Positions 8,978 through 50,430 of a stretch of DNA of 64,000 nucleotides are shown here, one piece after another. Location of the stretch: assembly GCA_003220475.1 (NCBI GenBank), contig QHSO01000004.1, positions 6,163-70,162 on the forward strand, given 5' to 3'. The notes beneath the pieces were generated by a model. It saw nothing but the letters and a program-made list of their open reading frames with translations, was not told the origin of the DNA and did not search any database. The DNA is from Candidatus Rokuibacteriota bacterium (GTDB lineage: Bacteria; Methylomirabilota; Methylomirabilia; Rokubacteriales; CSP1-6). Position numbers and translations under genes: made by a program. The stretch's first letter is position 1. Each line of letters begins with the position of its first letter.

Positions 8978-9109
8978 GGCCGACCGTTGTACACCATCCG
9001 GCTCGCGGCGCGATATGGAAAACTTTTGCCCGCAGAAATGTGGACGCGAGGCGAAAAGGTGAATTCCGAGAGCCGCGGAAGTGTTAGGATGGCGCGCGAA
9101 AACCGGGCC

Positions 9110-9125
9110 TGGCATTCCGCTTGCG
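9110..9125 (+). promoter_or_regulatory. sigma54 (-24/-12) promoter candidate
   Basis: TGGCAT-TCCGC-TTGCG has correct spacing. The predicted TSS near 9136 gives a 15-nt leader containing GGAGG before ATG 9151. Confidence 0.55.
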
Positions 9126-9150
9126 GTCGCGGCCGGCACGGAGGTGCGGC

Positions 9151-10155
9151 ATGAAGTTTCTTCTCGTGCTTCTCAGCGTCGTCGTCCTGTTTGCCACGGC
9201 CGTGCCGGCCGTCGCCGGTCCAGGGGATCCGCGGCTCGTCAACGGCATCCTCGAGTGGCCGCGCGCCGTGAGCAACGAGCCGTTCATCGTCGTCCGCGGC
9301 GATGACGGCGTGCTGTACTACGTCGCCGTCGGCGCCGCGCGGCACGACGCGTCGCTGACCGCCGGCGGGCGTGTCGCAGTGCTGGGCCTCGAGGGCCGCA
9401 GCGCTCACGAGATCAACGCGCTCGGCATAGGCGCCGGTGAGTCGGTGGAGGCTGCGCTGGGGAATCTGCAGGGCGCACGGCCGTCGCCGACCGTCGCCGC
9501 ACCGCCACCGCCAGCGGCGAGCACACCGCCCGCGCCGGCGGCGGCCGCACCCGCCGCGCCGTCACCAAACGGCGCCGCCGCCGCGATCGCTGCACCGGCC
9601 GCGAAGCCGTTGGCGCCCACACCGCCCGCCGCGTCCGCACCGGCGCCGAACGGGAAATCGGCGGTGGCGCCGACGTCGCCCGCCGCGACGGCATCCGCCC
9701 CGGCGGTGACGCCGTCCGCGCCCACGCCATCCGCGCCCCTGGTCACAGCGCCTGCGCCGCCCGCATCGACCTCACCCGCGCCGGCGGTCACGCCGCCCCC
9801 CGTGGGCGGTGCGCCGTTGATCATCAGCACACCGACGCCGTCGCCTGTTCGATCCGCGGCCGTGTCGCCGCCACCCGCGCGGCGCTCGACCGTCGAGGTG
9901 ACCACGCCGGCCGCGGTGCCGGCATCGTCGACCGACGAGCGCCGCTGGACCGAGATCAGCGGCGTGGTCGAGTCACTCGTCGGACGCACGCTGATACTGC
10001 GCTCGGACGAAGGCCGCGTTGCCGTCGACCTCTCGAGCCTGAGTCAAAATATCGACCGCGCGATCACGCCGGGCGCACACGTTCGCGTTTACGGCGTGCC
10101 GGTCGAGATCAGGTTCAAGGCGATGGGGTTCTTCGATCCGGGCACGCGTCCCTGA
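9151..10155 (+). CDS. secreted protein with two small beta domains joined by a long Ala/Pro-rich linker
   Basis: ATG 9151 follows GGAGG, and the signal peptide is MKFLLVLLSVVVLFATAVPAVAG. About 170 aa of A/P/S/T low complexity (about 9480-9950) separate the terminal domains. Confidence 0.6.
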   Translation: MKFLLVLLSVVVLFATAVPAVAGPGDPRLVNGILEWPRAVSNEPFIVVRGDDGVLYYVAVGAARHDASLTAGGRVAVLGLEGRSAHEINALGIGAGESVEAALGNLQGARPSPTVAAPPPPAASTPPAPAAAAPAAPSPNGAAAAIAAPAAKPLAPTPPAASAPAPNGKSAVAPTSPAATASAPAVTPSAPTPSAPLVTAPAPPASTSPAPAVTPPPVGGAPLIISTPTPSPVRSAAVSPPPARRSTVEVTTPAAVPASSTDERRWTEISGVVESLVGRTLILRSDEGRVAVDLSSLSQNIDRAITPGAHVRVYGVPVEIRFKAMGFFDPGTRP

Positions 10156-11177: not shown

Positions 11178-12338
11178 TCAGACGACGTGGTCGCGATGCA
11201 GCGCAGCGATCTCGTCCTTCGTATACCCGAGATCGGTGAGAATCGCGTCCGTGTGCGCGCCCATGTCGGGCGATGCCGTGCGCACCGCGCCCGGCGTGCG
11301 CGACAGCGTGACGGGCACGTTCTGCACCACCTGCTTGCCAAGCCGCGGATGCTCGACAGCGGTCGCGAGCCCCAGCGCCTGCACGTGCGGATCGTCGAAC
11401 ACTTCCTTCACGTTGTAGATCGGCCCGGTCGGCACGCCGGCCTTGTTGAGCACCTCGACCCAGTGCGCGCTCGGCTTGTGCATCAGCACGCCGTCCAGCT
11501 CCTCGTTCATCACGCGCCGGTTCTTCGAGCGGTCGGCGGGCGACTTGAAGCGCGGATCGTCGATCAGCGCCGGCGCGCCGATCGCCTCGCAGAGTCGGCG
11601 ATACATCACCTGGCCCGACGCGGCGATGTTGATGTGGCCATCGGAAGTCTTGAACACGCCCGTCGGGATCCCGGTTGGATGGTCGTTGCCCGCCTGCGGC
11701 GGGATTTCCTTGCCGAGCGTCCAGCGCGACGCCTGAAAGTCCAGCATGCGGATCATCGCCTCGAGCAGCGACGTGTGCACCCACTGGCCGCGTCCGGAGC
11801 GCTCGCGCTCGAGCAGCGCGACGAGGATCCCGTGCGCGAGGAACATGCCCGCGGTGAGATCCGCCACCGGAATGCCCACGCGCACAGGGCCCTGACCCGG
11901 CAGCCCGGTGATGGACATCAATCCGCCCATGCCCTGCGCGATCTGATCGTAGCCGGGACGGTCGCGATATGGACCCGACTGACCGAAGCCGGAGATGCTG
12001 CCGTACACGAGCCGCGGGTTGACCTTGCTCAGCGTTTCGTAATCGATGCCGAGACGGTGCTTGACGTCCGGACGATAGTTCTCGACCAGCACGTCCGCCT
12101 TCGCGACCAGACGCTTGAGCACGTCGACGCCACGCGGGTTCTTCAGGTCGAGGGTGATCGAGCGCTTGTTGCGGTGCAGGTTCTGGAAGTCGAACCCGTC
12201 GCGCGCGAAGTCGTCCTCGGCGCGGTTCTCCACCTTGATGATGTTGGCGCCCATCTCGGCGAGCTGGCGGACGCAGGTGGGACCGGAGCGCGCACGCGTG
12301 AGATCGATGACGGTGTACGGCTCGAGCGGCAGGGTCAT
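11178..12338 (-). CDS. CaiB/BaiF family (class III) CoA-transferase
   Basis: The product is 386 aa. N-terminal VIDLTRARSGPTCVRQLAEMGANIIKVE and YRPDV/GIDYETL are typical of family III CoA transferases. Confidence 0.9.
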   Translation of the reverse strand: MTLPLEPYTVIDLTRARSGPTCVRQLAEMGANIIKVENRAEDDFARDGFDFQNLHRNKRSITLDLKNPRGVDVLKRLVAKADVLVENYRPDVKHRLGIDYETLSKVNPRLVYGSISGFGQSGPYRDRPGYDQIAQGMGGLMSITGLPGQGPVRVGIPVADLTAGMFLAHGILVALLERERSGRGQWVHTSLLEAMIRMLDFQASRWTLGKEIPPQAGNDHPTGIPTGVFKTSDGHINIAASGQVMYRRLCEAIGAPALIDDPRFKSPADRSKNRRVMNEELDGVLMHKPSAHWVEVLNKAGVPTGPIYNVKEVFDDPHVQALGLATAVEHPRLGKQVVQNVPVTLSRTPGAVRTASPDMGAHTDAILTDLGYTKDEIAALHRDHVV

Positions 12339-14087: not shown

Positions 14088-15272
14088 ATGAAGGACGGGC
14101 TGCGGTTCGTCGACTGTGACATGCACATCATGGAGCCGCCCGATCTCTTCGAGCGCTACCTCGATCCCGCGTTCAAGCATCGCGTGATCCTGCCCATCGG
14201 CGCCGACGGTCGACCCGTGCGCGGCACCATCGTGGTGGACGGCCTGCCGACCACCATGGACGCCGAGCTGCAGCAGTATCGGAAGAAGAGCAAGGCTGCC
14301 GTCGACACCAGTCAGAGCACGCAGCCGCTGTCCGGCTCGCGAATCACCGGGCGTCTGGACTTCGCGATCCAGCGCAAGTACGACCCCGAGGCGCAGCTGA
14401 TGGGGATGGAGATGGAGGGCGTCGACATCGCGGTCCTCTATCCGACCACGGGCCTCAGCCTCCTCGCGCGCGACAACATGGATCCGCGGCTCTCGCTGGC
14501 GCTCTGCCAGGCCTACAACAACTGGATCCACGAGTTCTGCCGCCACCGGCCCGAGCGCCTGAAGTTCGTCGCGATGTTGCCGCCGCACGACGTGAACCTG
14601 GCCTGCCGCGAGCTGCTCCGCTGCGTGCGCGAGCTGGGCGCCGTCGGTTCGTTCATGCGTCCCAATCTCGTCAACGGTCACTACTGGCACTCGAACTACT
14701 GGACGCCGCTCTACGCGCTGCACGAAGAGCTGAACGTCACGTGGGGCTTCCACGAGGGCACCGGCGCCTGGTACTCACACATGAACGTGCTGTACGGCGA
14801 GAACCGCTTCTTCCGCCACGTGGCCAGCCACTGGATCGAGATGCAGCAGGCGCTGATCGCCATGGTCATCGGCGGAGTCTTCGAGTTCCATCCGCGGCTG
14901 CGCGTGGGCTTCCTCGAGGCCCAGAACTCCTGGGTGCCCGGCGTGCTGTCGCGCATCGAGTGGGACTATCCGCAATACCGCGACTCGCACGCGCCGTATC
15001 TGGCACTGACGCCCAAGGAATACTTCCGCCGCAACTGCTGGGCGGCGGTCGAGGGCAGCGAGCCCGAGATCGAGGCGACGGCCGGGCTGATCGGCGCCGA
15101 TCGCATGTGCATCTCCACCGACTACCCGCACTTCGACTCGAACTTCCCCTATGTCTCGACGAACCTCCTGAAGAACGTGCCCAAGGAGATGGCGGGGCCG
15201 ATCCTCGAGGGCGGCGCGCATCTCTACGGCTTCACCGAGGACCATTTCAAGAAGGCGGCCGCGGTCGCGTGA
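14088..15272 (+). CDS. amidohydrolase-2 (ACMSD-like) family protein
   Basis: The product is 394 aa. The N-terminus is FVDCDMHIMEP and the C-terminus is ISTDYPHFDS. Confidence 0.9.
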   Translation: MKDGLRFVDCDMHIMEPPDLFERYLDPAFKHRVILPIGADGRPVRGTIVVDGLPTTMDAELQQYRKKSKAAVDTSQSTQPLSGSRITGRLDFAIQRKYDPEAQLMGMEMEGVDIAVLYPTTGLSLLARDNMDPRLSLALCQAYNNWIHEFCRHRPERLKFVAMLPPHDVNLACRELLRCVRELGAVGSFMRPNLVNGHYWHSNYWTPLYALHEELNVTWGFHEGTGAWYSHMNVLYGENRFFRHVASHWIEMQQALIAMVIGGVFEFHPRLRVGFLEAQNSWVPGVLSRIEWDYPQYRDSHAPYLALTPKEYFRRNCWAAVEGSEPEIEATAGLIGADRMCISTDYPHFDSNFPYVSTNLLKNVPKEMAGPILEGGAHLYGFTEDHFKKAAAVA

Positions 15273-25080: not shown

Positions 25081-26520
25081 ATGCGTGTCCGTCGCTTACT
25101 GATGACCACCGCGCTTGTCCTCGCGTATCTCGTGAGCATGGGGACCCCGGCGTCGCCCGCGCCGCAGGACGGGACGCTCACCATCGGCGTCCATGTCACG
25201 CTCGTCAATCGCTGGCTCGATCCCGGCGAGACGGAGGCGCTGATCACGCCCTTCATGGTGCTCTACGCGCTGCACGACGCGCTCGTGAAGCCGATGCCCA
25301 AGAACATCATGACGCCGAGCCTCGCGGAGTCGTGGACGGCGTCCAAGGACGGGCTGAGCTACGACTTCGTGATCCGGAAGAACGCGAAGTTCCACAACGG
25401 CGATCCAGTGACCGCCGAGGACGTGAAGTTCACGTTCGAGCGCTACAAGGGCGCGTCCGCGAAGATCCTCAAGGACCACGTCAAGGAGATCCAGCTTCCG
25501 GCTCCCAATCGCGTCCGCTTCGTGCTGCAAGCGGCGTGGCCGGACTTCATGGCCTTCTATGGCACCTCGGCCACCGGCGCCGGCTGGATCGTGCCCAAGA
25601 AATACATCGAGAAGGTCGGCGAGGACGGATTCAAGAAGGCGCCCGTCGGAGCGGGGCCCTACAAGTTCGTCTCCTTCCAACCCGGCGTCGAGCTCGTGCA
25701 GACCGGCGAGGTCGACCTCGCATATCTGTTCACCGGGCCCGCCGCCGAGGAGCTGAAACGCTCGCCCGGCGTGCGGATCGTCGCCCCGGTCCTCTATGGC
25801 ATGTACTGGCTCGACTTCCCCGACCAGTGGGATCCGAAGTCGCCCTGGCATGACAAGCGTGTGCGCATGGCGGCCAATCTCGTCATCGATCGCAAGGGCA
25901 TCAATCAGTCGGAGATGCTCGGGCTGGGCAAGCTCGCGTCGTCCAACATTCCCCCGGAATTCGACTTCGCGCTGAAGCTCGAGCCGCCCGCGTATGATCC
26001 CAAGCGCGCCAAGCAGCTCATGGTGGAGGCGGGCTACGCCAACGGCTTCGACACGGGCGATCTGACGCCGCTGCCGCCCTACACGACGCTGGCCGAATCC
26101 GTCGCGGGCATGCTGCAGTCGATCGGCATCCGCTCGCACGTCCGCGCGATGGAGCGCGCCACCTTCCTGACGACGTGGCGCGAGAAGAAGCTGCACGGCC
26201 TCATCCTTCCCGCCACCGGCGCCGCCGGCAACGCCGCCGCGCGCATCGAGCCGTTCTTCACCAAGAACGGTTTCTACGCGTACGGCTCGATGCCGGAGAT
26301 CGACGATCTGTTCGAGCGCCAGGCCAAGGAGCTGGATCGCAAGCAGCGTGAGGCGCTGCTGCATCAGATCCAGAAGCTCATCGCCGACAACGTGCTCATC
26401 GCGCCGATCTTCCAGCAGGCGTTCATCTGGGGCGTGAGCGCCCGGGTCGCCGAGCCCGCCGCGGGGCTGATCGAAGGCTACCCGTACATCGGCCCGGCCG
26501 AAGACCTGAAGCTCAAGTAG
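25081..26520 (+). CDS. ABC transporter substrate-binding protein, family 5 (shortened)
   Basis: It has a signal peptide and family-5 SBP motifs (FHNGDPVTAEDVKFTFER, GAGPYKF). It is about 55 aa shorter than the paralogue at 62165, and no permease or ATPase genes are adjacent. Confidence 0.8.
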   Translation: MRVRRLLMTTALVLAYLVSMGTPASPAPQDGTLTIGVHVTLVNRWLDPGETEALITPFMVLYALHDALVKPMPKNIMTPSLAESWTASKDGLSYDFVIRKNAKFHNGDPVTAEDVKFTFERYKGASAKILKDHVKEIQLPAPNRVRFVLQAAWPDFMAFYGTSATGAGWIVPKKYIEKVGEDGFKKAPVGAGPYKFVSFQPGVELVQTGEVDLAYLFTGPAAEELKRSPGVRIVAPVLYGMYWLDFPDQWDPKSPWHDKRVRMAANLVIDRKGINQSEMLGLGKLASSNIPPEFDFALKLEPPAYDPKRAKQLMVEAGYANGFDTGDLTPLPPYTTLAESVAGMLQSIGIRSHVRAMERATFLTTWREKKLHGLILPATGAAGNAAARIEPFFTKNGFYAYGSMPEIDDLFERQAKELDRKQREALLHQIQKLIADNVLIAPIFQQAFIWGVSARVAEPAAGLIEGYPYIGPAEDLKLK

Positions 26521-28874
26521 TGGGCGAGCCGGTTACCGTCGAGAAGTTCGCCATCGGGCAAGCCGTGCGCCGCGTCGAGGACGCGCGGCTGCTCCACGGC
26601 CTCGGCCGCTACTCCGACGACCTCGACGTGCCGCGCCAAGCGTACGGGGTGCTCGTGCGCTCGCCCCACGCCCACGCGCGCATCGTCCGGATCGACGCGC
26701 GCGCGGCGTCGAGTGCTCCGGGCGTCCTCGCCGTGCTCACAGGCGCCGACCTGGCCGCCGACGGCGTGGGCAACATGCCGAGCGATCGCGCGCGCAAGCG
26801 CCGCGACGGCACGCCGGCCGTTGCCACGCCGCGCCCGCTGCTGGCGCGCGAGCGCGTGCGCCACGTCGGCGATCCCGTCGTCCTCGTCGTCGCGGACACG
26901 CGTGAGCACGCCGTCGACGCCGCCGACCTCGTCGTCGTGGAATACGCGCCGTTACCCGCGGTCGTCGCGACCGCCGACGCCGGCAGGCCGGGAGCGCCGG
27001 CCGTGTGGGACGAAGCGCCCGACAACGTCGCGTTCGTCTGGGCGGCCGGGCAAAAAGAGGCGGTGACTCGCGCGTTCGAGCGCGCGCCGCACGTCACGCG
27101 CCTCGACTTCGTCGTGAGCCGCGTGGCGGTGGCCCCGATGGAGCCGCGCGCGGCCGTCGGCGAATACGACCGGCGCACCGAGCGCTACACGCTGCACACG
27201 GGCATCCAGGGGCCGCACGGCACGCGCACGCTGCTGGCCGCCACGCTGGGCGTGGAGCAGAACCGCATACGCGTGATCAGCGCCGACGTCGGCGGCTCCT
27301 TCGGGATGCGCAGTGGGCTCTATCCCGAGATGGCGCTCGTGCTGTGGGCGGCAAGGCGGCTGGGCCGGCCCGTGAAGTGGACGTCCAGCCGCCGGGAAGG
27401 GATGCTCACGGACGAGGCCGGGCGCGACAACGTCTCCACCGTCGAGCTCGCGCTCGATCGCGACGGCACGTTTCTCGCGCTGCGCATCGCCGTCACGCTG
27501 AACATCGGCGCCTATCTCACGCCGCGGAGCGCGGGGCCGGGGACCAACAACGTCGGCGGCGTGGCCGGCGTGTACCGGACGCCCGCGATCCATCACGAGA
27601 CGACCGGCGTGTTCACGCACACGACGCCGACCGGTCCGTACCGCGGCGCGGGCCGGCCGGAGGCCACGTACGCGATCGAGCGCGTCATCGACGTGGCGGC
27701 GCGCGAGCTCGGGATCGATCCCATCGAGCTGCGGCGGCGTAATCTCATTCCGCCCTCGGCGATGCCGTTCAAGACGGGGCTCGTGTTCACGTACGATTGC
27801 GGCGACTTCGCGCGCGGCATGGACATGGCGCTCGCGCTGGCCGATCATGCCGGCTTCGCCAAGCGACGCGCTCAGGCACGCGAGCAGGGAAAGCTGCGCG
27901 GCCTCGGGGTCGCCAACGCCATCGAGGTGGCGGGTGGCCCCTACACGGCGGTGAATCCCGACACGGCGCAGATCCGCGTGAACCCCGACGGCTCGGTGAC
28001 CCTCTTCGCGGGCTCGACGACGATGGGGCAGGGCAACGACACGGCGTTCACGCAGATCATCGCCGATCGGCTCGGCGTGCCGCCCGCGCGCGTGCAGGTG
28101 CTGTCCGGCGACACGGATGCGCTCGGCTCGGGGCGTGGCAACGGCGGCTCAGGGGCGCTCACGGTCGGCGGCTCGGCCGTGCTCCGCGCGACGGACAAGA
28201 TCGTCGAGCGTGGCCGGCGTATCGCCGCGCAGCTCCTCGAGGCCGCTCCCGAAGACGTCGCGCTGCGTGACGGCCGCTTCGCCGTCGCCGGTACCGACCG
28301 CGGCGTGACGTTCGCCGACGTGGCGCGCGCGGCGTACGTGCCGAAGTCGCTGCCCGCGGGCCTCGAACCCGGCTTCAGCGAGACCGCGGCGTTCACGCCG
28401 CCCGCGGTGACGTTCCCCAACGGCTGCCACGTCTGCGAGGTCGAGATCGACGAGGCGACCGGCGTGGTGCGGATCGTGCGTCACACGGTCGTCGACGACG
28501 TGGGACGCATCGTCAATCCGATGCTCGTGAAGGGACAGATCCACGGTGGCGTCGTGCAGGGTCTGGGGCAGGGCCTCTGCGAGGCGCTGGTCTACGACGA
28601 GACGGGACAGCTGCTCGCCGGCTCGTTCATGGATTACGCGATGCCGCGCGCCGACGACGTCCCCGCCTTCGAGGTGGACTCGTACGAGGTGCCGACGCGC
28701 GTGAACCCGCTCGGCGCCAAGGGCGTCGGCGAGGCGGGCACGGTCGGCGCGCTGCCGGCGCTGATGAACGCCGTCAACGATGCGCTGGCGCCGCTGGGCC
28801 TGCGGCACATCGACATGCCGGTGACAGCCGAACGGGTCTGGCGAGCCATCGGCGGAGCCCGGATGCACGCGTAG
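26520..28874 (+). CDS. xanthine dehydrogenase/CoxL-family molybdopterin-binding large subunit
   Basis: The product is 784 aa, and GTG 26520 overlaps the upstream TAG by 1 nt. The N-terminus is GQAVRRVEDARLL, and the active-site loop is GPYRGAGRPE rather than the VAYRCSFR of true CO dehydrogenases. Confidence 0.9.
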   Translation: MGEPVTVEKFAIGQAVRRVEDARLLHGLGRYSDDLDVPRQAYGVLVRSPHAHARIVRIDARAASSAPGVLAVLTGADLAADGVGNMPSDRARKRRDGTPAVATPRPLLARERVRHVGDPVVLVVADTREHAVDAADLVVVEYAPLPAVVATADAGRPGAPAVWDEAPDNVAFVWAAGQKEAVTRAFERAPHVTRLDFVVSRVAVAPMEPRAAVGEYDRRTERYTLHTGIQGPHGTRTLLAATLGVEQNRIRVISADVGGSFGMRSGLYPEMALVLWAARRLGRPVKWTSSRREGMLTDEAGRDNVSTVELALDRDGTFLALRIAVTLNIGAYLTPRSAGPGTNNVGGVAGVYRTPAIHHETTGVFTHTTPTGPYRGAGRPEATYAIERVIDVAARELGIDPIELRRRNLIPPSAMPFKTGLVFTYDCGDFARGMDMALALADHAGFAKRRAQAREQGKLRGLGVANAIEVAGGPYTAVNPDTAQIRVNPDGSVTLFAGSTTMGQGNDTAFTQIIADRLGVPPARVQVLSGDTDALGSGRGNGGSGALTVGGSAVLRATDKIVERGRRIAAQLLEAAPEDVALRDGRFAVAGTDRGVTFADVARAAYVPKSLPAGLEPGFSETAAFTPPAVTFPNGCHVCEVEIDEATGVVRIVRHTVVDDVGRIVNPMLVKGQIHGGVVQGLGQGLCEALVYDETGQLLAGSFMDYAMPRADDVPAFEVDSYEVPTRVNPLGAKGVGEAGTVGALPALMNAVNDALAPLGLRHIDMPVTAERVWRAIGGARMHA

Positions 28875-30215: not shown

Positions 30216-30285
30216 CGTGTCTTCTCCGTGATGGCCCACCTGCCTGTTGCGATCAAGGCTGGAGGGTATCATCCTACGCAGCACC

Positions 30286-31530
30286 ATGCTCAGCGCCGCC
30301 GAGAACGAGACGCTGACGCGCGTCGGGACCGGCACGCCGATGGGCGAGCTCCTGCGGCGTTACTGGCAGCCCGTCGCCGCCGTCGCTCAGCTCGACGAAC
30401 AGCCCACGCTGGCCGTGCGCCTCATGGGCGAGGATCTCGTGCTCTACAAGGACACGCGCGGCGGCTATGGCCTGCTCGACCGCCACTGTCCACACAGGCG
30501 CGCCGATCTCTGCTATGGCGTACCCGAGGACCGCGGACTGCGCTGCCACTACCACGGCTGGCTCTTCGACAGCGCCGGCGCGTGCCTGCAGCAGCCGTTC
30601 GAGGAGATCGCGCGGCCCGAGGCGCGCTTTCGCGACAAGATCCGCACGACCGCATATCCGGTCCAGGCCAAGGCCGGCCTGCTCTGGGCGTATCTCGGAC
30701 CCGCACCGGCGCCGCTCGTGCCCGACTGGGATCTCTTCGGCGAGCGCGGCTACAAGCAGATCGTGTTCTCAGAAATCCCGTGCAACTGGTTCCAGGGCCA
30801 GGAGAACTCGATCGATCCCATCCACTTCGAGTGGCTGCACTCGAACTGGTCGGCCGCGCTGCGCGGCGAGCCCGGCGCGCGCGCGCCGCGACACCTGAAG
30901 ATCGCGTTCGAAGAATTCGAGTGGGGCTTCGTCTACCGCCGGGTGCGTGAGGACACGACCGAGGACGACGAGCTGTGGACCGTCGGCCGCGTGTGCCTCT
31001 GGCCGAATTGCCTGTACACGGGGAAGTTCGAGTGGCGCGTGCCGATCGACGACGCGCGCACGCTGCACGTGGCGTGGTTCAACGATGCCGTGCCGGGCGA
31101 CGCGCCGTTCGAGCAAGCCCAGATCCCGTACTGGCACGGGGCGATCACCGATCCGGCCAGCGGTCGCTTCATCACGAGCCACATCATGAACCAGGACTTC
31201 GTCGCGTGGGTCGGCCAGGGCGCGATCGCCGACCGCACGAAGGAGCATCTGGGGGAGAGCGATCGCGGCGTGATCCTGCTGCGCAAGCGCATGCTCGAGG
31301 AGGCGGCCGTGGTCGCCAGGGGCGGCGATCCGAAGGCCGTCATCCGCGATCCGTCGAAGAACGTCTCGCTGCCACTGCCGCGCGTGCGCACGGGCCGGGG
31401 TGCGCGGGTGGCGCCGCCCGGCAAGCCGCGGCCGATGCTGTTTCACGCGGGCCAGCCGCGCGAGATCGTCGAGGAGATCGATCGCATCTGGGTCGAGCGG
31501 AGTCAATCGGGCCAAGAACGGCGGCGATGA
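30286..31530 (+). CDS. Rieske [2Fe-2S] aromatic-ring-hydroxylating oxygenase, alpha subunit
   Basis: It starts at ATG 30286. The Rieske site is CPHRRADL...CHYHGW and the mononuclear iron motif is NSIDPIHFEWLH. Confidence 0.9.
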   Translation: MLSAAENETLTRVGTGTPMGELLRRYWQPVAAVAQLDEQPTLAVRLMGEDLVLYKDTRGGYGLLDRHCPHRRADLCYGVPEDRGLRCHYHGWLFDSAGACLQQPFEEIARPEARFRDKIRTTAYPVQAKAGLLWAYLGPAPAPLVPDWDLFGERGYKQIVFSEIPCNWFQGQENSIDPIHFEWLHSNWSAALRGEPGARAPRHLKIAFEEFEWGFVYRRVREDTTEDDELWTVGRVCLWPNCLYTGKFEWRVPIDDARTLHVAWFNDAVPGDAPFEQAQIPYWHGAITDPASGRFITSHIMNQDFVAWVGQGAIADRTKEHLGESDRGVILLRKRMLEEAAVVARGGDPKAVIRDPSKNVSLPLPRVRTGRGARVAPPGKPRPMLFHAGQPREIVEEIDRIWVERSQSGQERRR

Positions 31531-34482: not shown

Positions 34483-35697
34483 TCACGGCGTCGTCGTCGT
34501 CCCCTCGATGTCGCGCGAGCCGGATGCGCGCTGCAGGAAGTCCTTCGGGACCTCGCGGCCGGCGTCGGTGTACGCGCGGCGGATCGCCTCCACGTTGGGA
34601 CTGAAAATCGTCTTGCGGTTGCCGCGCGCCCACTCGTTGGAGCTCTGTGGACCGTCGGCGGAACCCTGAAAGCGCGGCATCACGTAGCGCGCGAACAGCT
34701 CGTAGCTGTGCAGCGTCTGCTGCCGCGTGGCCCAGTTGTGCGCTCGGAAGAGCACGCCTCCGAAGCCGCCGTTCGACAGCTGCCACAATTTTTCGATCCC
34801 TTTGATGACAGTCTCCACCGAGCCGACGAGCGTGGTGCCCATCTTCACGCCGTCGGTCAGCGGATCGTCGGAGCGGCCGGGCGGACGGCCGAGCGTTTCC
34901 TCGAAATAGGTGATCGTCTCGTGGCGCTCGGCGCGCTTCACCTGACGCATCGCCTCCTCGTCGTCGTCGGCAACGTGCACGTTGACGACGAGCTTCCAGT
35001 TCTTTCGGTCCAGCGTCTTGCCGTGCCGGGCCGCCGTCTCCTCGCCGATCTTCCACTGGTTGGCGAGCGCCTCGGGGCCGCCGGGAATGCCGGCGCCGAG
35101 CGAGAGCACGCCGAGGCCGTGACGGCCGGCGGCGATCACGCCCGACGGCGTCATCACGCTGGCGATGGCGATCGGAAAGTGCGGCTCGGTGTAGGGCGCC
35201 AGGTGCAGGCGCGCCTGCCGCATCTCGAACCAGTCCGTCTTCAGCGTCACCGGCTCGTCGCCCTTCAGCAGCAACATGATCGCGTCGAGCGCCTCGTCCA
35301 TGCGTGGCCGCTGCGTCACCGGCTCGATGCCCATCATGTACGCGTCCGACACGAGCGCGCCCGGACCGCAGCCGAGCATCGTGCGCCCGCGCGTCATGTG
35401 ATCGAGCTGCACGAAGCGCTGCGCGACCAGGAACGGATGGTGATACGGCAGGCTCGTCACCCCCGAGCCGAGCATGATGTGGCGGGTGCGCTCGGCGGCG
35501 GCGGCGATGAAGATCTCGGGCGACGCGATCAATTCCCAGCCGGCCGAGTGATGCTCGCCGACCCAGACCTCGTCATAGCCGAGCCAGTCGAGCCACTCGA
35601 TCAGCTCCATGTCGCGCGCCATGGCGAGCGTAGGATTTTCACCGAGGCGGTGAAACGGGGCGAGGAAGATGCCGAACTTCATTCCTTTGTGGGCCAT
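34483..35697 (-). CDS. LLM-class flavin-dependent monooxygenase (LimB-like)
   Basis: The start is ATG 35697 or ATG 35682 (MKFGIFLAPFH...). The EVWVGEHH motif is present. The remainder of the 785-aa ORF upstream is antisense to the esterase and SDR genes. Confidence 0.9.
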   Translation of the reverse strand: MAHKGMKFGIFLAPFHRLGENPTLAMARDMELIEWLDWLGYDEVWVGEHHSAGWELIASPEIFIAAAAERTRHIMLGSGVTSLPYHHPFLVAQRFVQLDHMTRGRTMLGCGPGALVSDAYMMGIEPVTQRPRMDEALDAIMLLLKGDEPVTLKTDWFEMRQARLHLAPYTEPHFPIAIASVMTPSGVIAAGRHGLGVLSLGAGIPGGPEALANQWKIGEETAARHGKTLDRKNWKLVVNVHVADDDEEAMRQVKRAERHETITYFEETLGRPPGRSDDPLTDGVKMGTTLVGSVETVIKGIEKLWQLSNGGFGGVLFRAHNWATRQQTLHSYELFARYVMPRFQGSADGPQSSNEWARGNRKTIFSPNVEAIRRAYTDAGREVPKDFLQRASGSRDIEGTTTTP

Positions 35698-35754
35698 GGG
35701 CCAGACTGTAGCACGAGAGGTCCGGCGTCTCCTTTTGGCGTACCATGTCGCGCC

Positions 35755-36651
35755 ATGAGCGACAAAGGCATTCATCTCGTTCGCGAGCATCTGGCGAAGC
35801 TGCCGCCGCCGAACACGCTCACCATCGAGCAGCGGCGGGCCCAGTACGAGCGCGCCGAGCGCGTCTTTCCGACGCCGCCGGACGTGAAGGTCGAGACGAT
35901 CGCGGCGCCCGCGCGCCCCGCGGAGTGGCTGACGCCGCCGGGGGTCCGCACCGACGCCGTCGTGCTCTACTTGCACGGCGGCGGCTACGTGATCGGCTCG
36001 CCGCGCTCGCATCGCCACCTGGCGGCCGCCATCGCGCGCTCGGCCGGGACGCGCGCGTTGCTGCTCGACTATCGGCTGGCGCCGGAGCATCCGTTCCCGG
36101 CCGCGTTGGAGGACTCCGTCGCCGCCTATCAGTGGCTGCTCGGGCAGGGCATCGCGCCGGAGCGCGTCGTCGTGGCCGGCGACTCGGCGGGCGGCGGACT
36201 GACGGTGGCGACGCTGCTCGCACTGCGCGACCGAGGGCTGCCGCGGCCGGCCGGCGGCGTCTGCATCTCGCCCTGGGTCGATCTCACGAACAGCGCCGCG
36301 AGCTACGTCACACGGGCGGCCGCCGACCCTATCGTCACGCGCGACGCCATCGAGGGCCTGACGCAGGCCTACATCGGCGCCGGCGATCGCAAGGCGCCGC
36401 TGGTCTCGCCGCTCTACGCCGACCTCCGTCATCTGCCGCCACTGCTGGTGCAGGTCGGCGGCGACGAGGTGCTGCTCGACGACGCGCGTGGCCTCGAACA
36501 GCGCGCGAAGGCGGCCGGCGTGGACGTCACGCTGGAGGAATGGCCCTCGATGATCCACGTCTGGCATTGGTTCCTGCCCATGCTCGACGAGGCCGAGCGC
36601 GCGATCGAGGTCATCGGCCGGTTCGTGAGGAGGGTCCATGGCGCAGCGTGA
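35755..36651 (+). CDS. alpha/beta hydrolase, hormone-sensitive-lipase-type esterase
   Basis: It starts at ATG 35755. Motifs are HGGGY (oxyanion hole) and GDSAGG (nucleophile). Confidence 0.9.
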   Translation: MSDKGIHLVREHLAKLPPPNTLTIEQRRAQYERAERVFPTPPDVKVETIAAPARPAEWLTPPGVRTDAVVLYLHGGGYVIGSPRSHRHLAAAIARSAGTRALLLDYRLAPEHPFPAALEDSVAAYQWLLGQGIAPERVVVAGDSAGGGLTVATLLALRDRGLPRPAGGVCISPWVDLTNSAASYVTRAAADPIVTRDAIEGLTQAYIGAGDRKAPLVSPLYADLRHLPPLLVQVGGDEVLLDDARGLEQRAKAAGVDVTLEEWPSMIHVWHWFLPMLDEAERAIEVIGRFVRRVHGAA

Positions 36652-37429
36652 CGGTCGCACCGTGCTGATCACCGGCGCCGCGCGCGGCATCGGCGCGGCG
36701 ACGGCCCGCCGTTTGGCGCGTGACGGCGGGCGGCTGGTGCTGTCCGACGTCGACGGCGTCGGCGTGGAGAAGCTCGCCGCCGAGCTGGGCGGCGTCGCCG
36801 TGCGCGCCGACGTCACGAACGCCGCCGACATCGCGCGCATGGTCGACGAGCCCTATCAGCGCTGGGGCCGGCTCGACGTGCTTTTCAACAACGCCGGCGT
36901 CATCCGTCTGCAGCCGCTGCTCGACGTGACCGAGGCCGAGTGGAACCGCGTCCTCGACGTCAATCTCAAGGCCGTGTTCTTCGTGCTCCAGGCGGTCGCG
37001 CGTCGCATGAAGACGCAGTCGCCGATGCCGGGCTCGGAGCTGCGCGGCAAGCTGATCCAGACGGCGTCGATCGCCGGCTATCGCGGCGGCAATCATCTGA
37101 TGACGCCGTACTCGGCGTCCAAAGCGGGCGTGATCAGCCTCACGCGCTCGGCGGCGCAGGCGCTCGCGGCCGATCGCATCACGTCCAACTGCGTCTGTCC
37201 CGGCGCCGTCGACACCGCGATGTGGGAGCAGATCGACCGTGAATGGGGCGCGCTGCACGGCTGGGGGCCGCGCGAGGCGTGGAAGCGGCGGATCGCCGGG
37301 ATTCCGCTTGGCCGCCCCGAGACGCCGGACGACGTCGCCGGTGTCATCGCGTTTCTCGCGAGTGCCGATTCGGACTACATGACGGGCCAGGCCATCAAGG
37401 TCGACGGCGGCATGGTGATGGGAGACTGA
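36638..37429 (+). CDS. SDR-family oxidoreductase
   Basis: It overlaps the esterase gene by 14 nt. Motifs are TGAARGIG, NNAG and YSASKAG. Confidence 0.9.
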   Translation: MAQRDGRTVLITGAARGIGAATARRLARDGGRLVLSDVDGVGVEKLAAELGGVAVRADVTNAADIARMVDEPYQRWGRLDVLFNNAGVIRLQPLLDVTEAEWNRVLDVNLKAVFFVLQAVARRMKTQSPMPGSELRGKLIQTASIAGYRGGNHLMTPYSASKAGVISLTRSAAQALAADRITSNCVCPGAVDTAMWEQIDREWGALHGWGPREAWKRRIAGIPLGRPETPDDVAGVIAFLASADSDYMTGQAIKVDGGMVMGD

Positions 37430-38225: not shown

Positions 38226-38846
38226 ATGGCCAACGTTCAGTGGCAGATCAACGGCGAGTATTTTGAGGCGTGCAACTGCGACTCGGTGTGTCCGTGTCCG
38301 ACGTCGGGCCTGGCGGCGCGTCCGACCAAGGGTGTGTGCGACGCCGGCCTTGTGTTCCAGGTTCAGCGTGGTCGCTACGGCAGTAGCACGCTCGACGGAC
38401 TCAGCTTCGCCGTACTCTTGCACACGCCCGGCCCGATGATCCAGGGCAACTGGACGGTCGGCCTCATCCTGGACGAGCGCGCGTCGAAGGAGCAGCGCGA
38501 GGCGCTCACGACGATCGCGAGCGGCCAGGGCGGCGGCCCGATGGCCGCCCTCGCACCGCTCATCGGGAAGTTCGCCGGCGCGGAGGCCAAGCCGATCAAG
38601 ATCGAGAGCAGTGGGATGCGCCGCTCGGTGTCCATTCCAGGCGTCCTCGACCTCATGGTCGAAGGGATTCCCGGCGCCAACCAGGGGGAGCCGATCTATC
38701 TCGACAACGTGGGGCATCCGGCGGCTTCGCGCCTGGCGCTGGCCAAGGCGTCGCGCAGCCACATGCACGCGTTCGGGATCAACTGGGACGACACGTCCGG
38801 TCGCAACAACGGCCACTTCGCGCCGTTCTCGTGGAAGTCGGCATGA
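38226..38846 (+). CDS. DUF1326 family protein (Cys-rich N-terminus)
   Basis: It starts at ATG 38226. The N-terminus reads QINGEYFEACNCDSVCPCP. DUF1326 is the usual genomic partner of DUF2182 (recalled). Confidence 0.85.
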   Translation: MANVQWQINGEYFEACNCDSVCPCPTSGLAARPTKGVCDAGLVFQVQRGRYGSSTLDGLSFAVLLHTPGPMIQGNWTVGLILDERASKEQREALTTIASGQGGGPMAALAPLIGKFAGAEAKPIKIESSGMRRSVSIPGVLDLMVEGIPGANQGEPIYLDNVGHPAASRLALAKASRSHMHAFGINWDDTSGRNNGHFAPFSWKSA

Positions 38847-40480
38847 GCAACATGACCGTTCTGGACCCGACCGGCTATCCGCCGAAGATCTCCGCCAAGC
38901 AACTCGCGCCGCGACTCGACACGCTGAACGGCAGGACGGTATATCTCGTCGACTGTCGCTTCGACGACTCCGGGCTGTTCCTCGAGCAGATGCGGGCGTG
39001 GCTCGCCGAGCACCTGCCCGGCGTGACGACCGTGCTGAAGCCGATCTCCAGCGTGTATCTCGTCGACGATCCGAAGACGTGGGAGGAGATCCGGGCGCGC
39101 GGCCACGCCGCGATCCTCGGCGTCGGCCACTGAAGCACCTGCGCGCCGGCGGTCGCCGCGCACGCGATGACGCTCGAAGCCAAGTACGGCGTGCCCACCG
39201 TGGCCGTGCACACCGACAAGTTCGACAAGGTCGTGCGCTCGGTGGCCGAGGTCAGCGGCATGCCCGATCTCGCGCAGGTGTTCGTACCGCAGCCGATCAT
39301 GGGCAAGACGCCGGCGCAGCTGCGCGCGTACGTCGATGGCACCGATCCGATCAGCGGCCGCCACGTCATGCAGGAGGTGATCGACGGTCTCACGCGTCCG
39401 CGTGACGGCGGGCGTGGGGCCGGCGAGTACGATCGTTCGACGCCGCGCCTCGTCGAGCCCGACTCCGAGGAGAACCTGCATCGCCTCTTCCTCGAGCGGA
39501 ACTGGACGGACACGCTGCCGATCGTGTTGCCGACGGAAGAACGTGTGGGCGCGATGCTCGGCGGCACGCGGCGCAAGCCCGACGAGATCGTCGGGCGCAT
39601 GCGCTCGACGCACTTCCGCGAGTACTGGCAGTACACCGTCGAGAAGGTCGCGGTGAACGCGGTGATGGCGGGGGCGCGGCCGGAGTACTTCCCCGTGATT
39701 CTCGCGCTGGCGGCGACGGGCGTCACCGCACGCGGGTCGTCCTCGAGCGCGGTGGCGGCGATGGCGGTGGTGAACGGGCCGATTCGTCGCGAGATCGGGA
39801 TGAACGCCGGCACCGGTGCGATGGGACCCTACAACCACGCCAACGCGACGATCGGCCGGGCGTACGGCCTGCTGTCGCAGAACGGACAGGGCGGCTCGGT
39901 GCCCGGCCTTTCGTACATGGGCAACCAGGGCAACAACTATGCGTACAACAGCGTGACGTTCGCCGAGAACGAAGAGCGCAGCCCGTGGGAGCCGTTCCAC
40001 GTTCAGCACGGCCTGGCCCTCTCGGACAGCGCGGTGAGCGTCTTCTCCGGCGTGCGCTCGACGGCGTTCACGCTCGGACTGCGCGAGAAGCACTGGCGCG
40101 AGCACGTCGGCCATCTGCTGCGCGGCATGGACCCGCACGGGCCGCCCGCGCTGCTGCTCGATCCGATCGCCGCGCGCCAGTTCGTCGACCGCGGCGGGTT
40201 CACCAAGAAGGACGCGCTGATCGACTGGCTCCACGACGCGGCGCGCATGCGCGCCGGCGAGTACTGGGACTATCAGCTGATCCAGAACTACATCTATCCG
40301 CGCGCGACGTTCGGCGAGGAGCCGTGGGCGAGCAAGCTCGAGGCGGCCGCCGACGAGGAAATCCCCATGTTCCGCCGCGAGGACATCCACGTGATCGTGG
40401 TCGGCGGCGAGACCAACGGCTACTGGCGGATCATGGGCTGCAACTATCAAACGACGGAGTCGGTGGACGCGTGGCGCTGA
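38843..40480 (+). CDS. candidate selenoprotein: UGSC-like (U-x-x-C) domain fused to an uncharacterised C-terminal domain; TGA 39131-39133 read as Sec
   Basis: ATG 38843 overlaps the DUF1326 stop (ATGA). ORFs 38831..39133 and 39167..40480 are in the same frame with no other stop between them. The junction reads ILGVGH-U-STCAPAV. ATG 39167 has no RBS. The alternative reading is two separate CDS. Confidence 0.5.
39140..39162 (+). other. candidate bacterial SECIS hairpin
   Basis: The stem is tgcgcg/cgcgca (6 bp). After a C.C mismatch it extends by C:G, G:C and G.U to a CGG triloop whose apex is 17-21 nt after the UGA. GC-rich sequence forms such hairpins easily. Confidence 0.3.
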
Positions 40481-40863
40481 TCTTCGCCGTCCTCGTCGTG
40501 CTGCTGAGCGCCGAGCTCGCGACGGCGGACGACGCAATGCGGCTGGCCATGGCTCGCCTACGGCTGACCACCGACCCCAAGATTCCCGTCGGCTGCACGC
40601 CCCTTGGCTCCGTGGACGACAACTCCGTGAAGCGTCTGCGGGTCAAGGTCGTTCGGCTCGGAGGCGACACGGCGCTGCTGTCGTTTCCGACCGAGCGGCT
40701 GGAGCGCATCACCGCGATCGTGTTCCGCTGCCCACCGGCGGCGGCCGAGCCGAGCACGCCACCGGCGGTGACGTCGGAGCCGCCGGCCGCGCCGAGCGTG
40801 CCGCCACCCGCCAGCGCACCGCCACCGCCGCCACCACCCGGATCGGCACCAGCACCGCGATAG
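40471..40863 (+). CDS. small secreted protein (DUF4156-like core, Pro-rich tail)
   Basis: GTG 40471 overlaps the upstream gene by 10 nt. The signal peptide is ALIFAVLVVLLSAELATA. The core LRLTTDPKIPVGCTPLGSV...VRLGGDTALL resembles DUF4156 lipoproteins (recalled). Confidence 0.45.
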   Translation: MALIFAVLVVLLSAELATADDAMRLAMARLRLTTDPKIPVGCTPLGSVDDNSVKRLRVKVVRLGGDTALLSFPTERLERITAIVFRCPPAAAEPSTPPAVTSEPPAAPSVPPPASAPPPPPPPGSAPAPR

Positions 40864-40919
40864 CGCGATCACCCGCGACCACGTTGCGCCGTCGCGCGCG
40901 TTGTGGTCCACTCCCCGCC

Positions 40920-43051: not shown

Positions 43052-43897
43052 ATGGGCCGGATCGTGTTCGCCGCCGCGATGTCCCACGTCCTCGATCCCG
43101 ACTACTACGAACGCGTGTGCGGCGCCGTGGGGCGACGCAAGACCGACGAGGCCATGGCCGCCATCGCCGCGATGGGTGAGCGGTTCTCGGCGACGGGCGC
43201 CGACGCGCTCGTCGTCGTGGCCGACGATCACCTCAACGCGTTTTCGTTCAACTGCGTGCCCGCCATATGCGTGCGGATCGGCCGGGACGTGCCGCGCATG
43301 CGTCAGGATCACGCCGAGGCCTTCGACGCCGTGCTCGAGCACATGCCGATCAGTTATCCGCTGCACGAGGCGCTCGCCAACGCGATTCTCGAGCAGGGCA
43401 CGGCGGCAGGATTCGACCTCGCGCTGTCGTGGGAGGCGCCCGTCGACCACGCCTTCCTGGCCCCCGTCAACACGATGCACGGCACGCGCCCGATCCCGCC
43501 GCTGGTGCCGATCTGGATCAACTGCTTCGTCGCGCCGCAGCCGACCGCGCGGCGCTGCTTCGCCTTCGGCCAGCACATCGCGCGCGTCGTCGCGCGCGGC
43601 GACTGGAATGTCGGCATCATCGCGACGGGCGGACTCTCGCACTTCCCGGAGCTGTCGGTGGCCCGCATCGGCGACACCGACAGCGTGTTCGACGGCAGGC
43701 TGATCCACTGGATGGAGCGGGGCGAGCACGAGCCGCTGCAGGCGCTCAGCGGCGACGAGCTGCACAAGAGCGGCAGTCACGAGTTCCTCAACTGGATGGT
43801 GCTGCTCGGCGCAGTGAGCCCCGCGCGCGCCGAGGTGCGCTACTTCGGCGAGCTGCCGCGGATCAACCTGGCGGCCGTGGAGTGGAACCTCGCGTGA
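43052..43897 (+). CDS. class III extradiol ring-cleavage dioxygenase, LigB-type catalytic subunit
   Basis: ATG 43052 follows AGGAGAG. Metal and catalytic residues are in context: AAMSHVL, VADDHLNAF, GGLSHFPE and GSHEFLNW. Confidence 0.85.
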   Translation: MGRIVFAAAMSHVLDPDYYERVCGAVGRRKTDEAMAAIAAMGERFSATGADALVVVADDHLNAFSFNCVPAICVRIGRDVPRMRQDHAEAFDAVLEHMPISYPLHEALANAILEQGTAAGFDLALSWEAPVDHAFLAPVNTMHGTRPIPPLVPIWINCFVAPQPTARRCFAFGQHIARVVARGDWNVGIIATGGLSHFPELSVARIGDTDSVFDGRLIHWMERGEHEPLQALSGDELHKSGSHEFLNWMVLLGAVSPARAEVRYFGELPRINLAAVEWNLA

Positions 43898-48118: not shown

Positions 48119-48459
48119 TGCTGCGCCAGCGGCACGGTCGCGGTCAGCACCGGCTCGCCGCCCACCACCCGCGTCGTATGGCCCTTGCCGGTGGTGTCCT
48201 CGACCAGGCGCGCGTCGCCGGGACCGAACACCTGCGTGCTGCCGTCACCGCAGCCGATCTCGAGCTGCCCCGAGAGAATGATGACGAACTGTCGGCGCGG
48301 CGCCGGGTGCCAGTCGAGGAACCGATCCTTCGGCCAGACGCTGAACGAGATCTGCGTGGTCGGCAGGCCCTTGAGCCAGTCGCCCTTCTTCTCGATGTCG
48401 ATCGGCTCGAGATGCGACTGCCCGTCCGCCCCGGTGTAGAGCCGCCAGGTCTTCTTCAT
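48115..48459 (-). CDS. small cupin-like protein
   Basis: ATG 48459 gives 114 aa. Both ends overlap neighbouring genes by ATGA. Confidence 0.7.
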   Translation of the reverse strand: MKKTWRLYTGADGQSHLEPIDIEKKGDWLKGLPTTQISFSVWPKDRFLDWHPAPRRQFVIILSGQLEIGCGDGSTQVFGPGDARLVEDTTGKGHTTRVVGGEPVLTATVPLAQQ

Positions 48460-49670
48460 CGCGCGCTGCCCTCGAGCGCGAAGCCGTAGAGCTGCGCGGC
48501 GTTCTCGCAGACGATCTTGCGGCGGACGTCGGCGGGCAGGTGGCCCAGCTCGCGCTGCACGTACTCGCGCGAGTCCGGCCACACGCCGTCGGGATGCGGG
48601 AAGTCCGAGCCCCACATGATCTTGTCGACGCCGAGCTCGTCGATGAGCTTGATCCCGATCGGATCCGTCTGGTACGTGGCCCAGCACTGCCGCTTCCAGT
48701 ACTCGCTCGGCGGCATCGTCAGCGAGAGGTCCTTGAACTGGTCCTCCCACTCGGCGTCCATGCGCCAGAGGATGTAGGGGATCCAGCCGATGCCCGACTC
48801 GCCGAGCACCAGGCGCATCCCGCGATAGCGCTCGAGCGCGCCCGAGAAGATGATCGAAGCGAGGATGTTCGCCATGTTGACCTGGAACTGCGTGATGCTC
48901 GTGGCGAAGGCCGCGCGGGCGACGGGCAGCTCGACGGCCGGCGCATCGGGCAGCGCCGCCCGCGACGGATCGCTACCCACGAAGATGATCTTGCGGATGT
49001 GGTCGGGCACGTAGCCGCCGACGGTGTGGAAGTGCAGCGGCAGTCCCGACGCGTTGACGACTTCCCACAGCGGATTCCAGTACGGATCCCACAGCGGCTT
49101 GAGATCGGGCGAGTTCGCGATGTCCAGCCCGCGCAGCGCGCCGCGCTTGGCCACGCGCTCGACCTCCGTGATGGCGGCATCGAGCGGATGGTTCGGGATC
49201 GACGCGAGGCCGGCATAGCGCTCGGGGTGCGCCGAGCAGAAGTCGGCGAGCCACTCGTTGTAGACCCGCATCACTTCGACGGTGGCCTCGGGATCGTTCA
49301 TGCGGCTCGTCGCGCCGAGGATGCCGTAGAGCACCTCGGCCTGCACGCCGTCGCGGTCTTGATCTTTCAGGCGCAGGTCCGGATCGCTCAGCCGCCGGAT
49401 GCCCTTCTTGCCGTCCTCGTACAGTCCCGTCGCCGCCATGCGGTCGGCGCGATGGATGCGGCCCGGCACGTACTCGCGTCCTGCGGAGCCCATGCCGTTG
49501 ACGAGCCCGAGGTTCGCGCCCTTCTTCGTCACCCAGCGCTTGCCCTTCGGATCGTCGGCCACGTACGGCATGCGGTCACGCATGTCCGCCGAGGCGTGCG
49601 AGACGAAGAGATCGGTCGGCAGCCAGCAGAGGTCGAGGTGGCAATCGGCGGAGATCATCTCGTAACGCAT
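48456..49670 (-). CDS. amidohydrolase-2 family protein
   Basis: ATG 49670 follows AGGAGG. Motifs are ISADCHLD, LHFHT and WGSDFPHPD. Confidence 0.9.
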   Translation of the reverse strand: MRYEMISADCHLDLCWLPTDLFVSHASADMRDRMPYVADDPKGKRWVTKKGANLGLVNGMGSAGREYVPGRIHRADRMAATGLYEDGKKGIRRLSDPDLRLKDQDRDGVQAEVLYGILGATSRMNDPEATVEVMRVYNEWLADFCSAHPERYAGLASIPNHPLDAAITEVERVAKRGALRGLDIANSPDLKPLWDPYWNPLWEVVNASGLPLHFHTVGGYVPDHIRKIIFVGSDPSRAALPDAPAVELPVARAAFATSITQFQVNMANILASIIFSGALERYRGMRLVLGESGIGWIPYILWRMDAEWEDQFKDLSLTMPPSEYWKRQCWATYQTDPIGIKLIDELGVDKIMWGSDFPHPDGVWPDSREYVQRELGHLPADVRRKIVCENAAQLYGFALEGSAR

Positions 49671-49678
49671 GGGTCCTC

Positions 49679-50430
49679 CTAGAGTCCGCGCCAGTAGCGC
49701 CGGCCTTCGAGTCGCACGATGCGGCCGAAGCCCGGCGCCTCGAAGTGGCCTGCCGCGACGACGATTTCCTCGCGCTCGACCCGATCGAGCAGCGTGCGCC
49801 GCGTCTGACGGGTGAGGTCCGGATCCATGTCCGCGCGCGAGACCCAGTCGGGCTCCTGCAATTGCACCGGGCTGTGCGCGGCATCGCCCAGCACGAGGGC
49901 GCGCTCGCCGTGCGAGGTGACCAGGATCGACATGTGGCCCGGCGTGTGGCCGGGCGTCGGCACCGCGGTGAGCGTGCGCGTGAGCGCGTGCTCGCCCTTC
50001 ATGAACTCGACCAGACCGAGATCCGCGAGCGGCCAGACGCATGTCGGCGCGTTCGGAAAACGCGTGGGCTGCACGTCGGGCTGGTGGCACGCCTCCCAGT
50101 CCTTGGTGCTCACCCAGTACCGCGCCTTCGGAAACGTCGGCACCCAGCGCCCGCCCGCGTCGGTGAGATTCCAGCCGACGTGATCGCGGTGGGCGTCTCC
50201 TTCGGCCGCGGGCCCAGTCCCGTGTCGATCAGGATCGTGCGGCCGTCCGCCCGGATCAGATACGAGCCGAGGTTGAAGCGGACCTTGTGCTCGTCGGTGA
50301 GATGGGCGTCGTACGGCTGCCACTGTTCTTCGGGGATGGTCGGGAAGAAGTTGCAGAGGTCGAACTCGAGGGAGCCGTCGGAGAGCGCCATGATCTCGAC
50401 GTCGCCGACGCGGATCACGTGGTTGGGCAT
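49679..50430 (-). pseudogene. MBL-fold metallo-hydrolase with internal deletion and frameshift
   Basis: The N-terminal ORF (ATG 50430 ... RTILIDTGLGP) and the C-terminal ORF (...HRDHVGWN...PTPGHTPGH...) are in different frames. Only 17 nt (50192-50208) separate GLGP from HRDH, where MBL enzymes have about 35-50 aa. Confidence 0.6.

Follow-up and report, generated by a model that had tools for sequence, protein, structure and literature searches.

We report that a 64 kb stretch of DNA from a Candidatus Rokuibacteriota bacterium (contig QHSO01000004.1; the whole stretch is hereafter called the window) carries, at positions 38843..40480, what is very probably one gene, encoding a UGSC-family selenoprotein of 545 residues, in which the in-frame UGA at 39131-39133 would be decoded as selenocysteine (Sec). 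The evidence for this assignment comes from the reading frame itself, from homologues that carry either UGA or a cysteine codon at the same column, and from a hairpin directly after the UGA; the coordinates of all features are collected in Table 1.

A Single Reading Frame Split by UGA

The gene is one continuous frame: the open reading frames (ORFs) 38843..39133 and 39167..40480 are in register, and are split only by the TGA and the 33 stop-free bases that follow it, as had been proposed in an earlier note on this DNA made from the letters alone. Both GTG 38831 and ATG 38843 are possible starts, the former lying 336 nt, a multiple of three, before ATG 39167 (39167-38831). Read through from ATG 38843, where the upstream piece of the public annotation (96 aa) also begins, the product has 545 aa, with the UGA as residue 97, a Cys as residue 100 (TGC 39140-39142) and the whole-gene stop at TGA 40478-40480; the peptide over the UGA is ILGVGH-U-STCAPAVAAHAMTLEAK. 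The DNA here is 69% GC. Before the UGA, the GC content at third codon positions (GC3) is 0.89, and after it 0.92, such that both pieces are of coding type. The 11 codons linking TGA 39131 to ATG 39167 encode STCAPAVAAHA and, as the note had pointed out, all end in G or C. We note, however, that this is not informative by itself, since at a GC3 of ∼0.9 such a run has a chance of 0.9^11, or ∼0.3. The absence of a GGAGG-type ribosome-binding site (RBS) from ATG 39167, also remarked on earlier, stands, in that no purine-rich RBS precedes this codon (the preceding bases are GCCGCGCACGCG-ATG).

Of the 43 genes predicted in the window, 35 use UGA as their ordinary stop, which excludes an altered genetic code. 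We also searched the entire window for further in-frame TGAs with coding-type sequence on either side, and no other candidate emerged. Exactly this gene is present in three independent public assemblies, in each of which it is called as pieces of 96 aa and 437 aa, both matching the Pfam family PF24696; that the same split recurs in independent assemblies rules out a read error.

Probable Selenocysteine, and Cysteine in Homologues, at the UGA Column

A protein search returned homologues of two kinds. Those of the first kind are 84-92% identical to the window protein, have 436-438 aa and begin at the Met after the UGA; they are relatives cut short by gene callers. Most close database relatives are post-UGA fragments of this sort, so that truncation is systematic across the family and the databases lack its active-site residue, just as the public calls split the window gene into two “hypothetical proteins”. 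Those of the second kind are 66-71% identical, have 546-558 aa and align end to end with the read-through product, with Cys at the UGA column (GVGH-C-STCAP) in all 12 of the sequences aligned; one of them is named “UGSC family (seleno)protein” by NCBI.

A genome scan restricted to one genome per species gave 80 loci, of which the best is a Methylomirabilota metagenome-assembled genome (MAG) at 92% identity, the others being mainly from Rokubacteria, Chloroflexota, Binatia and delta-proteobacteria. The homologous codon is TGA in all 80, with the peptide conserved on both sides. A metagenome scan seeded with a Cys form added 80 further loci (160 in total, L001-L160), with 18 Cys-type matches, all of which have Cys at the UGA column, and many more of TGA type. 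Thus, the earlier expectation that Cys or Sec would align with residue 97 holds in every full-length homologue, and the outcome that would have spoken for separate proteins, namely homologues ending at the UGA, was not found, as both sides are conserved in one frame.

A motif search over the 160 loci, in which U-x-x-C was required, found 168 UGA sites, with the partner Cys present in all of them by construction of the search; the motifs are H-U-S-T-C (88), G-U-E-A-C (22), G-U-P-G-C (19), G-U-H-G-C (11), G-U-D-G-C (8), L-U-S-T-C (7), D-U-G-S-C (3) and others. Two to four UGA-containing UGSC genes occur in each of 23 of these loci, and in an exhaustive search with the post-UGA part, 2532 clusters (at 50% identity) were matched at E ≤ 1e-10, a number that rises to 4272 at E ≤ 0.001. 

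Five loci (L116, L121, L123, L130 and L158) contain three to four long UGA-containing UGSC paralogues within one locus of ∼11 kb, with differing motifs (U-E-A-C, U-P-G-C, U-H-G-C, U-N-A-C and U-G-S-C), which suggests arrays or multi-subunit selenoprotein assemblies. In a Rokubacteria MAG (L022), a second selenoprotein gene with the canonical SGIGD-U-GSC motif lies at ∼8650-9240 (TGA at 8959), ∼700 nt downstream of the long-form gene, and is apparently a short form.

The Hairpin Following the UGA

Directly after the UGA lies a putative selenocysteine insertion sequence (SECIS). The earlier note had placed a hairpin at 39140-39162, with its apex 17-21 nt after the UGA; a hairpin is indeed present, and the consensus moves it to 39143-39161, with the loop 18-21 nt after the UGA. 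Numbered from the U of the UGA, it begins at nt 13 and ends at nt 31; the bulge is nt 17, and the loop occupies nt 21-24, its G-U being nt 22-23. From 76 distinct sequences, RNAalifold derives the same hairpin as the consensus, with 7 bp, one bulged C and the loop GGUC; the pair 39145-39159 is GC in 39 sequences, GU in 36 and AU in one, and the isolated hairpin folds at −10.4 kcal/mol.

The apical loop of the Escherichia coli SECIS also reads GGUC. This element (fdhF-type) is described as spanning nt 15-31, with a bulged U17 and with G23 and U24 of the loop as the SelB contacts. Both hairpins lie within the coding sequence directly after the UGA, have a short upper stem whose 5′ side carries one bulged pyrimidine, at nt 17, show a G-U in a small apical loop, and end at nt 31. 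They differ in that the bulged base is C rather than U in the window, the loop G-U is at nt 22-23 rather than nt 23-24, and three base pairs separate bulge and loop in the window hairpin.

The hairpin is constrained at the level of nucleotides. When 80 sequences are aligned by codon, the five four-fold degenerate codons at +4 to +8 (GCG CCG GCG GTC GCC) have a codon entropy of 0-0.1 bit, compared to 1.24 bits on average, and no less than 0.33, for the 182 other conserved codon columns of at least four-fold degeneracy, none of which is at or below 0.1. Among the 15 distinct Cys-form sequences, the third positions vary at the hairpin codons and the hairpin is not formed. We consider this freezing of synonymous sites, taken together with the absence of the hairpin from the Cys forms, to be the decisive support for a predicted SECIS; the bacterial SECIS geometry suggested earlier is in this sense confirmed by comparison, in that the hairpin behaves as a SECIS, with constraint in the TGA forms. 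The paralogous subfamilies (U-S-S-C, U-P-G-C, U-E-A-C, U-D-G-C and others) have other stems, as in GCCCGAC[GGUC]GUCGGG, CGCCGGA[GGUC]UCCGGC and GCGGCGA[GUG]UCGCCGC, but their hairpin loop, GGUC or GUG, keeps its distance from the UGA.

We also applied, in our own implementation, the published criteria for bacterial SECIS elements (a loop of 3-9 nt, a stem of 4-16 bp, a G in the first two loop positions, a distance of 16-37 nt from the UGA and a minimum free energy ≤ −7.5). The window hairpin, with its 4-nt GGUC loop, 7 bp, 17-nt spacing and −10.4 kcal/mol, falls within all of these, as do 95% of the UGA sites, compared to 169 of 431 control positions (39%) in the same genes. In view of this pass rate at control positions in GC-rich genes, we rejected the generic criteria as sufficient evidence.

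Assignment to the UGSC Family

For the domain searches, Cys was substituted for the UGA residue. The UGSC family (PF24696) matches residues 5-165 with 94.4 bits (cutoff 25, E = 1.1e-26) over profile positions 1-160 of 172, in a match that runs across the UGA. The family suggested in the earlier note is thus the right one, and its point that a stop at the TGA would cut a domain midway is borne out by one Pfam domain crossing the junction. Against NF041046, the NCBIfam equivalog model for the “UGSC family (seleno)protein”, the score is 61.9 bits, below the cutoff of 125, and the remaining ∼380 residues have no match in Pfam or NCBIfam; the window protein is a member of a divergent long subfamily, and not a canonical short D-U-G-S-C protein.

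What the window protein has in common with the family is, besides the PF24696 match above threshold, the position of the U-x-x-C, which follows a G-[VI]-G-x strand end in the identical column, the occurrence of both Sec and Cys forms, and a putative SECIS directly after the UGA. The Sec/Cys-x-x-Cys after a G-x-G-x strand end is present as GVGH-U-STC, which aligns with GVGD-U-GSC (L130), GVGG-U-EAC, GVAG-U-PGC and others, and with GVGH-C-STC in the Cys forms. It differs in its motif, H-U-S-T-C instead of D-U-G-S-C, and in a 347-residue C-terminal domain that lies outside the 147-position NF041046 model. One canonical D-U-G-S-C gene (L130, 10183-11613) has the same C-terminal domain (LPIVPPTRE..., AVNAVMAGAKPEYFPVILAA...), and the fusion is therefore not confined to the H-U-S-T-C subfamily.

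The UGSC family corresponds to the “UGSC-containing protein” of Zhang and Gladyshev (PMC1976440, PMC2398784), described as a selenoprotein family in 2007-2008, of unknown function, thought to be redox-active, among the most abundant selenoprotein families of aquatic metagenomes, and occasionally fused to an unknown domain. The L130 fusion may be the “UGSC/Unknown_1” fusion reported in 2008. As the family was described in 2007-2008 and is named by NCBI, which applies “UGSC family (seleno)protein” to homologues of 465-556 aa, the window gene belongs to a known kind; it adds one more member in a phylum already reported to be selenoprotein-rich, and will not surprise a specialist. Its value lies in the correction of a systematic annotation error, and in two leads to the function of a large, mostly Sec-containing and uncharacterized family: the fused domain, which is conserved but for which solved structures offer no match, and a recurring thioredoxin-reductase-like neighbor.

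The likeness to GrdB/PrdB-type reductases that the earlier note also suggested found no sequence support, as there is no PF07355 match at E ≤ 1. The similarity is limited to the U-x-x-C listed for PrdB and to a Sec located within a larger enzyme, and not in a small thioredoxin-like protein; in addition to the missing PF07355 match, the window differs in having no Grd or Prd genes nearby.

Alternative Readings of the UGA

The public gene callers treat the UGA as a real stop, and the window would then hold either two genes, of 96 aa and 437 aa with ATG 39167 as a possible start of the second, or a pseudogene broken by a nonsense mutation. We regard this as highly improbable: a nonsense mutation would not persist at the same codon in 80 of 80 loci from several phyla, the 11 codons between the UGA and an ATG that lacks an RBS are conserved as a peptide, a single Pfam domain spans the junction, and the Cys forms are continuous. 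The TGA is also one base away from a Cys codon (TGC or TGT), and Cys homologues exist, such that a sequencing or assembly error might come to mind. However, the recurrence of the split in three assemblies, the presence of TGA in 80 independent MAGs and the restriction of the hairpin constraint to the TGA forms reduce the likelihood of such an error to almost nothing.

A somewhat different possibility is that read-through of the UGA inserts a standard amino acid, by near-cognate Trp or Cys decoding or by local recoding, with the hairpin only stimulating read-through. The sequence alone cannot identify the inserted residue, and the Sec machinery was not seen in the window. Nevertheless, in loop sequence, bulge and spacing the hairpin matches a SelB-binding SECIS, the alignment of the UGA with Cys is what Sec/Cys pairs typically show, and UGSC is an established selenoprotein family. 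Moreover, the phylum of the closest relatives, Methylomirabilota, is reported to be selenoprotein-rich, one MAG having 63 predicted selenoprotein genes according to a paper citing Deng et al. 2026. Taking these points together, we consider decoding as a standard amino acid to be improbable, and selenocysteine insertion by far the better explanation.

A number of observations nevertheless weigh against a selenoprotein with a redox function. The single-sequence fold after the UGA has no extra stability over shuffled sequences (z = 0.47); we rejected such folding as evidence, as it carries no information in DNA of this GC content, and this value together with the control passes above makes the single-sequence argument for a SECIS weak, such that the case rests on comparison. 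The stem, in turn, is almost invariant in the closest clade, with a compensatory change in one sequence only, and most stem covariation comes from paralogues; a search of Rfam gave no family at gathering thresholds. With respect to the machinery, ARAGORN found no tRNA in the window, no selA, selB or selD was found among the 30 window ORFs scanned with Pfam, and tblastn with E. coli SelD gave no match in the window; among the 160 relatives' loci, there was no tRNA-Sec, and the same SelD query gave one weak match at the edge of L111 and nothing else. We note, however, that 64 kb without sel genes says little about the whole genome. On the side of function, a thioredoxin-reductase-like (TrxR-like) gene is absent from the window and found in 0 of 34 loci of its own clade. 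The C-terminal domain has no credible match in the PDB by Foldseek and no conserved Cys among the aligned homologues, and it is consequently the motif by itself that carries the redox-enzyme part of our reading.

Structure and Proposed Mechanism

For the N-terminal domain, we used the AlphaFold2 (AF2) model of a Cys homologue (P0015, 71% identical; predicted local distance difference test score, pLDDT, 73), which has a strand at residues 92-98, followed by Cys100 and Cys103, and a helix at 103-117. In this model, the U/C-x-x-C is predicted to lie in an α/β domain, preceded by a β-strand and followed by the N-terminal end of a helix. A Foldseek search of the PDB with the whole model gave weak matches (best E 2.4e-3), the better superpositions being mostly with flavodoxin-like α/β domains, which we rejected as evidence of homology. 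The C-terminal domain of the window protein was modeled with a pLDDT of 79 and a predicted template modeling score (pTM) of 0.83. Its best Foldseek match, class I fumarate hydratase (E 1.4e-3, TM-score ∼0.25, root-mean-square deviation 17 Å), was likewise rejected as a homologue, and searching the PDB with a family profile gave chance matches only (E 0.41).

The most likely mechanism is that the hairpin at 39143-39161 acts as a bacterial SECIS, in which the GGUC loop and the bulged base would recruit SelB carrying Sec-tRNA(Sec) to a ribosome paused at the UGA. We infer further that Sec97 and Cys100 would form a redox-active selenol/thiol pair cycling through a selenenylsulfide, and that this center would be reduced by a TrxR-type system and serve the fused C-terminal domain. 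In other lineages, the adjacent TrxR-like gene suggests that NAD(P)H drives the reduction of the U-x-x-C center; as no such gene is adjacent in the window, the general thioredoxin system would have to serve here. The data themselves establish one gene, the Sec/Cys homology and a nucleotide-level constraint on the hairpin; the SelB-dependent decoding, the redox chemistry and the reductase partner are our inference from these. A broader and rather speculative extension is that the long UGSC proteins might constitute an uncharacterized class of selenium-dependent enzymes, in which a flavodoxin-like U-x-x-C domain with a dedicated TrxR-like reductant would pass electrons to a C-terminal catalytic domain. 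If true, this would be a reductase system similar in logic to glycine and proline reductase and unrelated to them.

Gene Neighborhood

The TrxR-like neighbor is a flavoprotein gene with a C-A-[ST]-C site, whose best match is TIGR01292 (291-300 bits, below the cutoff of 343). It lies ≤400 nt downstream on the same strand in 20 of 34 loci from Chloroflexota, Binatia and delta-proteobacteria, and in 15 of 60 metagenome loci. It directly adjoins the long UGSC gene in L044 (7722-8684), L088 (6647-7591) and 38 other loci, on the same strand and beside both Sec and Cys forms. The window protein thus shares with thioredoxin/thioredoxin reductase pairs a redox dyad at a (predicted) strand-to-helix junction and, in many related loci, an adjacent TrxR-like gene on the same strand; it differs in that the weak Foldseek matches of its predicted N-terminal domain are flavodoxin-like and not of thioredoxin fold, and in that the window holds no TrxR-like gene.

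In the window, the neighbors are SDR, PpoB2 and DUF1326 genes upstream, and acyl-CoA dehydrogenase and LigB genes downstream. As the SDR, PpoB2, DUF1326 and acyl-CoA dehydrogenase context is common only to the three closest loci, we rejected it as an operon clue to function.

Table 1. Positions in the Window of the Probable Selenoprotein Gene, Its Elements, and Other Gene Types
Feature	Position	Strand	Remarks
Likely ribosome-binding site, GGAAG	38833..38837	+	5 nt before ATG 38843; read from sequence
Complete read-through coding sequence	38843..40480	+	545 codons and stop TGA; predicted selenocysteine at residue 97
Start/stop overlap, ATGA	38843-38846	+	ATG 38843 overlaps the stop of the upstream DUF1326 gene
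UGSC domain, residues 5-165, predicted α/β	38855..39337	+	U-S-T-C between β-strand and helix start; PF24696; NF041046; AF2 model
In-frame UGA, predicted selenocysteine codon (residue 97)	39131..39133	+	TGA in 80/80 loci; Cys in homologues
TGC, Cys100, partner of the U-x-x-C	39140..39142	+	Kept in 168 paralogue sites and in Cys forms
Putative SECIS hairpin, GCGC-C-GGC[GGUC]GCC-GCGC	39143..39161	+	7 bp; bulged C 39147; apical loop GGUC 39151-39154
C-terminal domain, 347 residues	39437..40477	+	No Pfam or NCBIfam match; conserved in paralogues, including D-U-G-S-C
Catabolism-type genes	30247-31530, 43052-43897, 11178-12338, 14088-15272, 48456-50090		In the window

Other Features of the Window

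The window is rich in gene types often seen in aromatic and organic-acid catabolism (Table 1), comprising a Rieske/LigXa-like oxygenase, a LigB-type extradiol dioxygenase, a family III CoA-transferase, Amidohydro_2 proteins, a TRAP transporter and, at 26520-28874, a xanthine-dehydrogenase-type molybdoenzyme; in other genomes, none of them shows a link to the selenoprotein gene. Downstream of the selenoprotein gene, the public calls include a predicted 130-aa ORF at 40471-40863 (+), without a Pfam match, which overlaps the last 10 bases of that gene and occupies the greater part of the gap of ∼400 bases up to the acyl-CoA dehydrogenase gene at 40884. Finally, the 785-aa ORF at 34483-36840 (−) has a luciferase-like monooxygenase domain only at residues 387-684, and its true start is probably much further downstream, because its long N-terminal part overlaps + strand ORFs and the start of the SDR gene.

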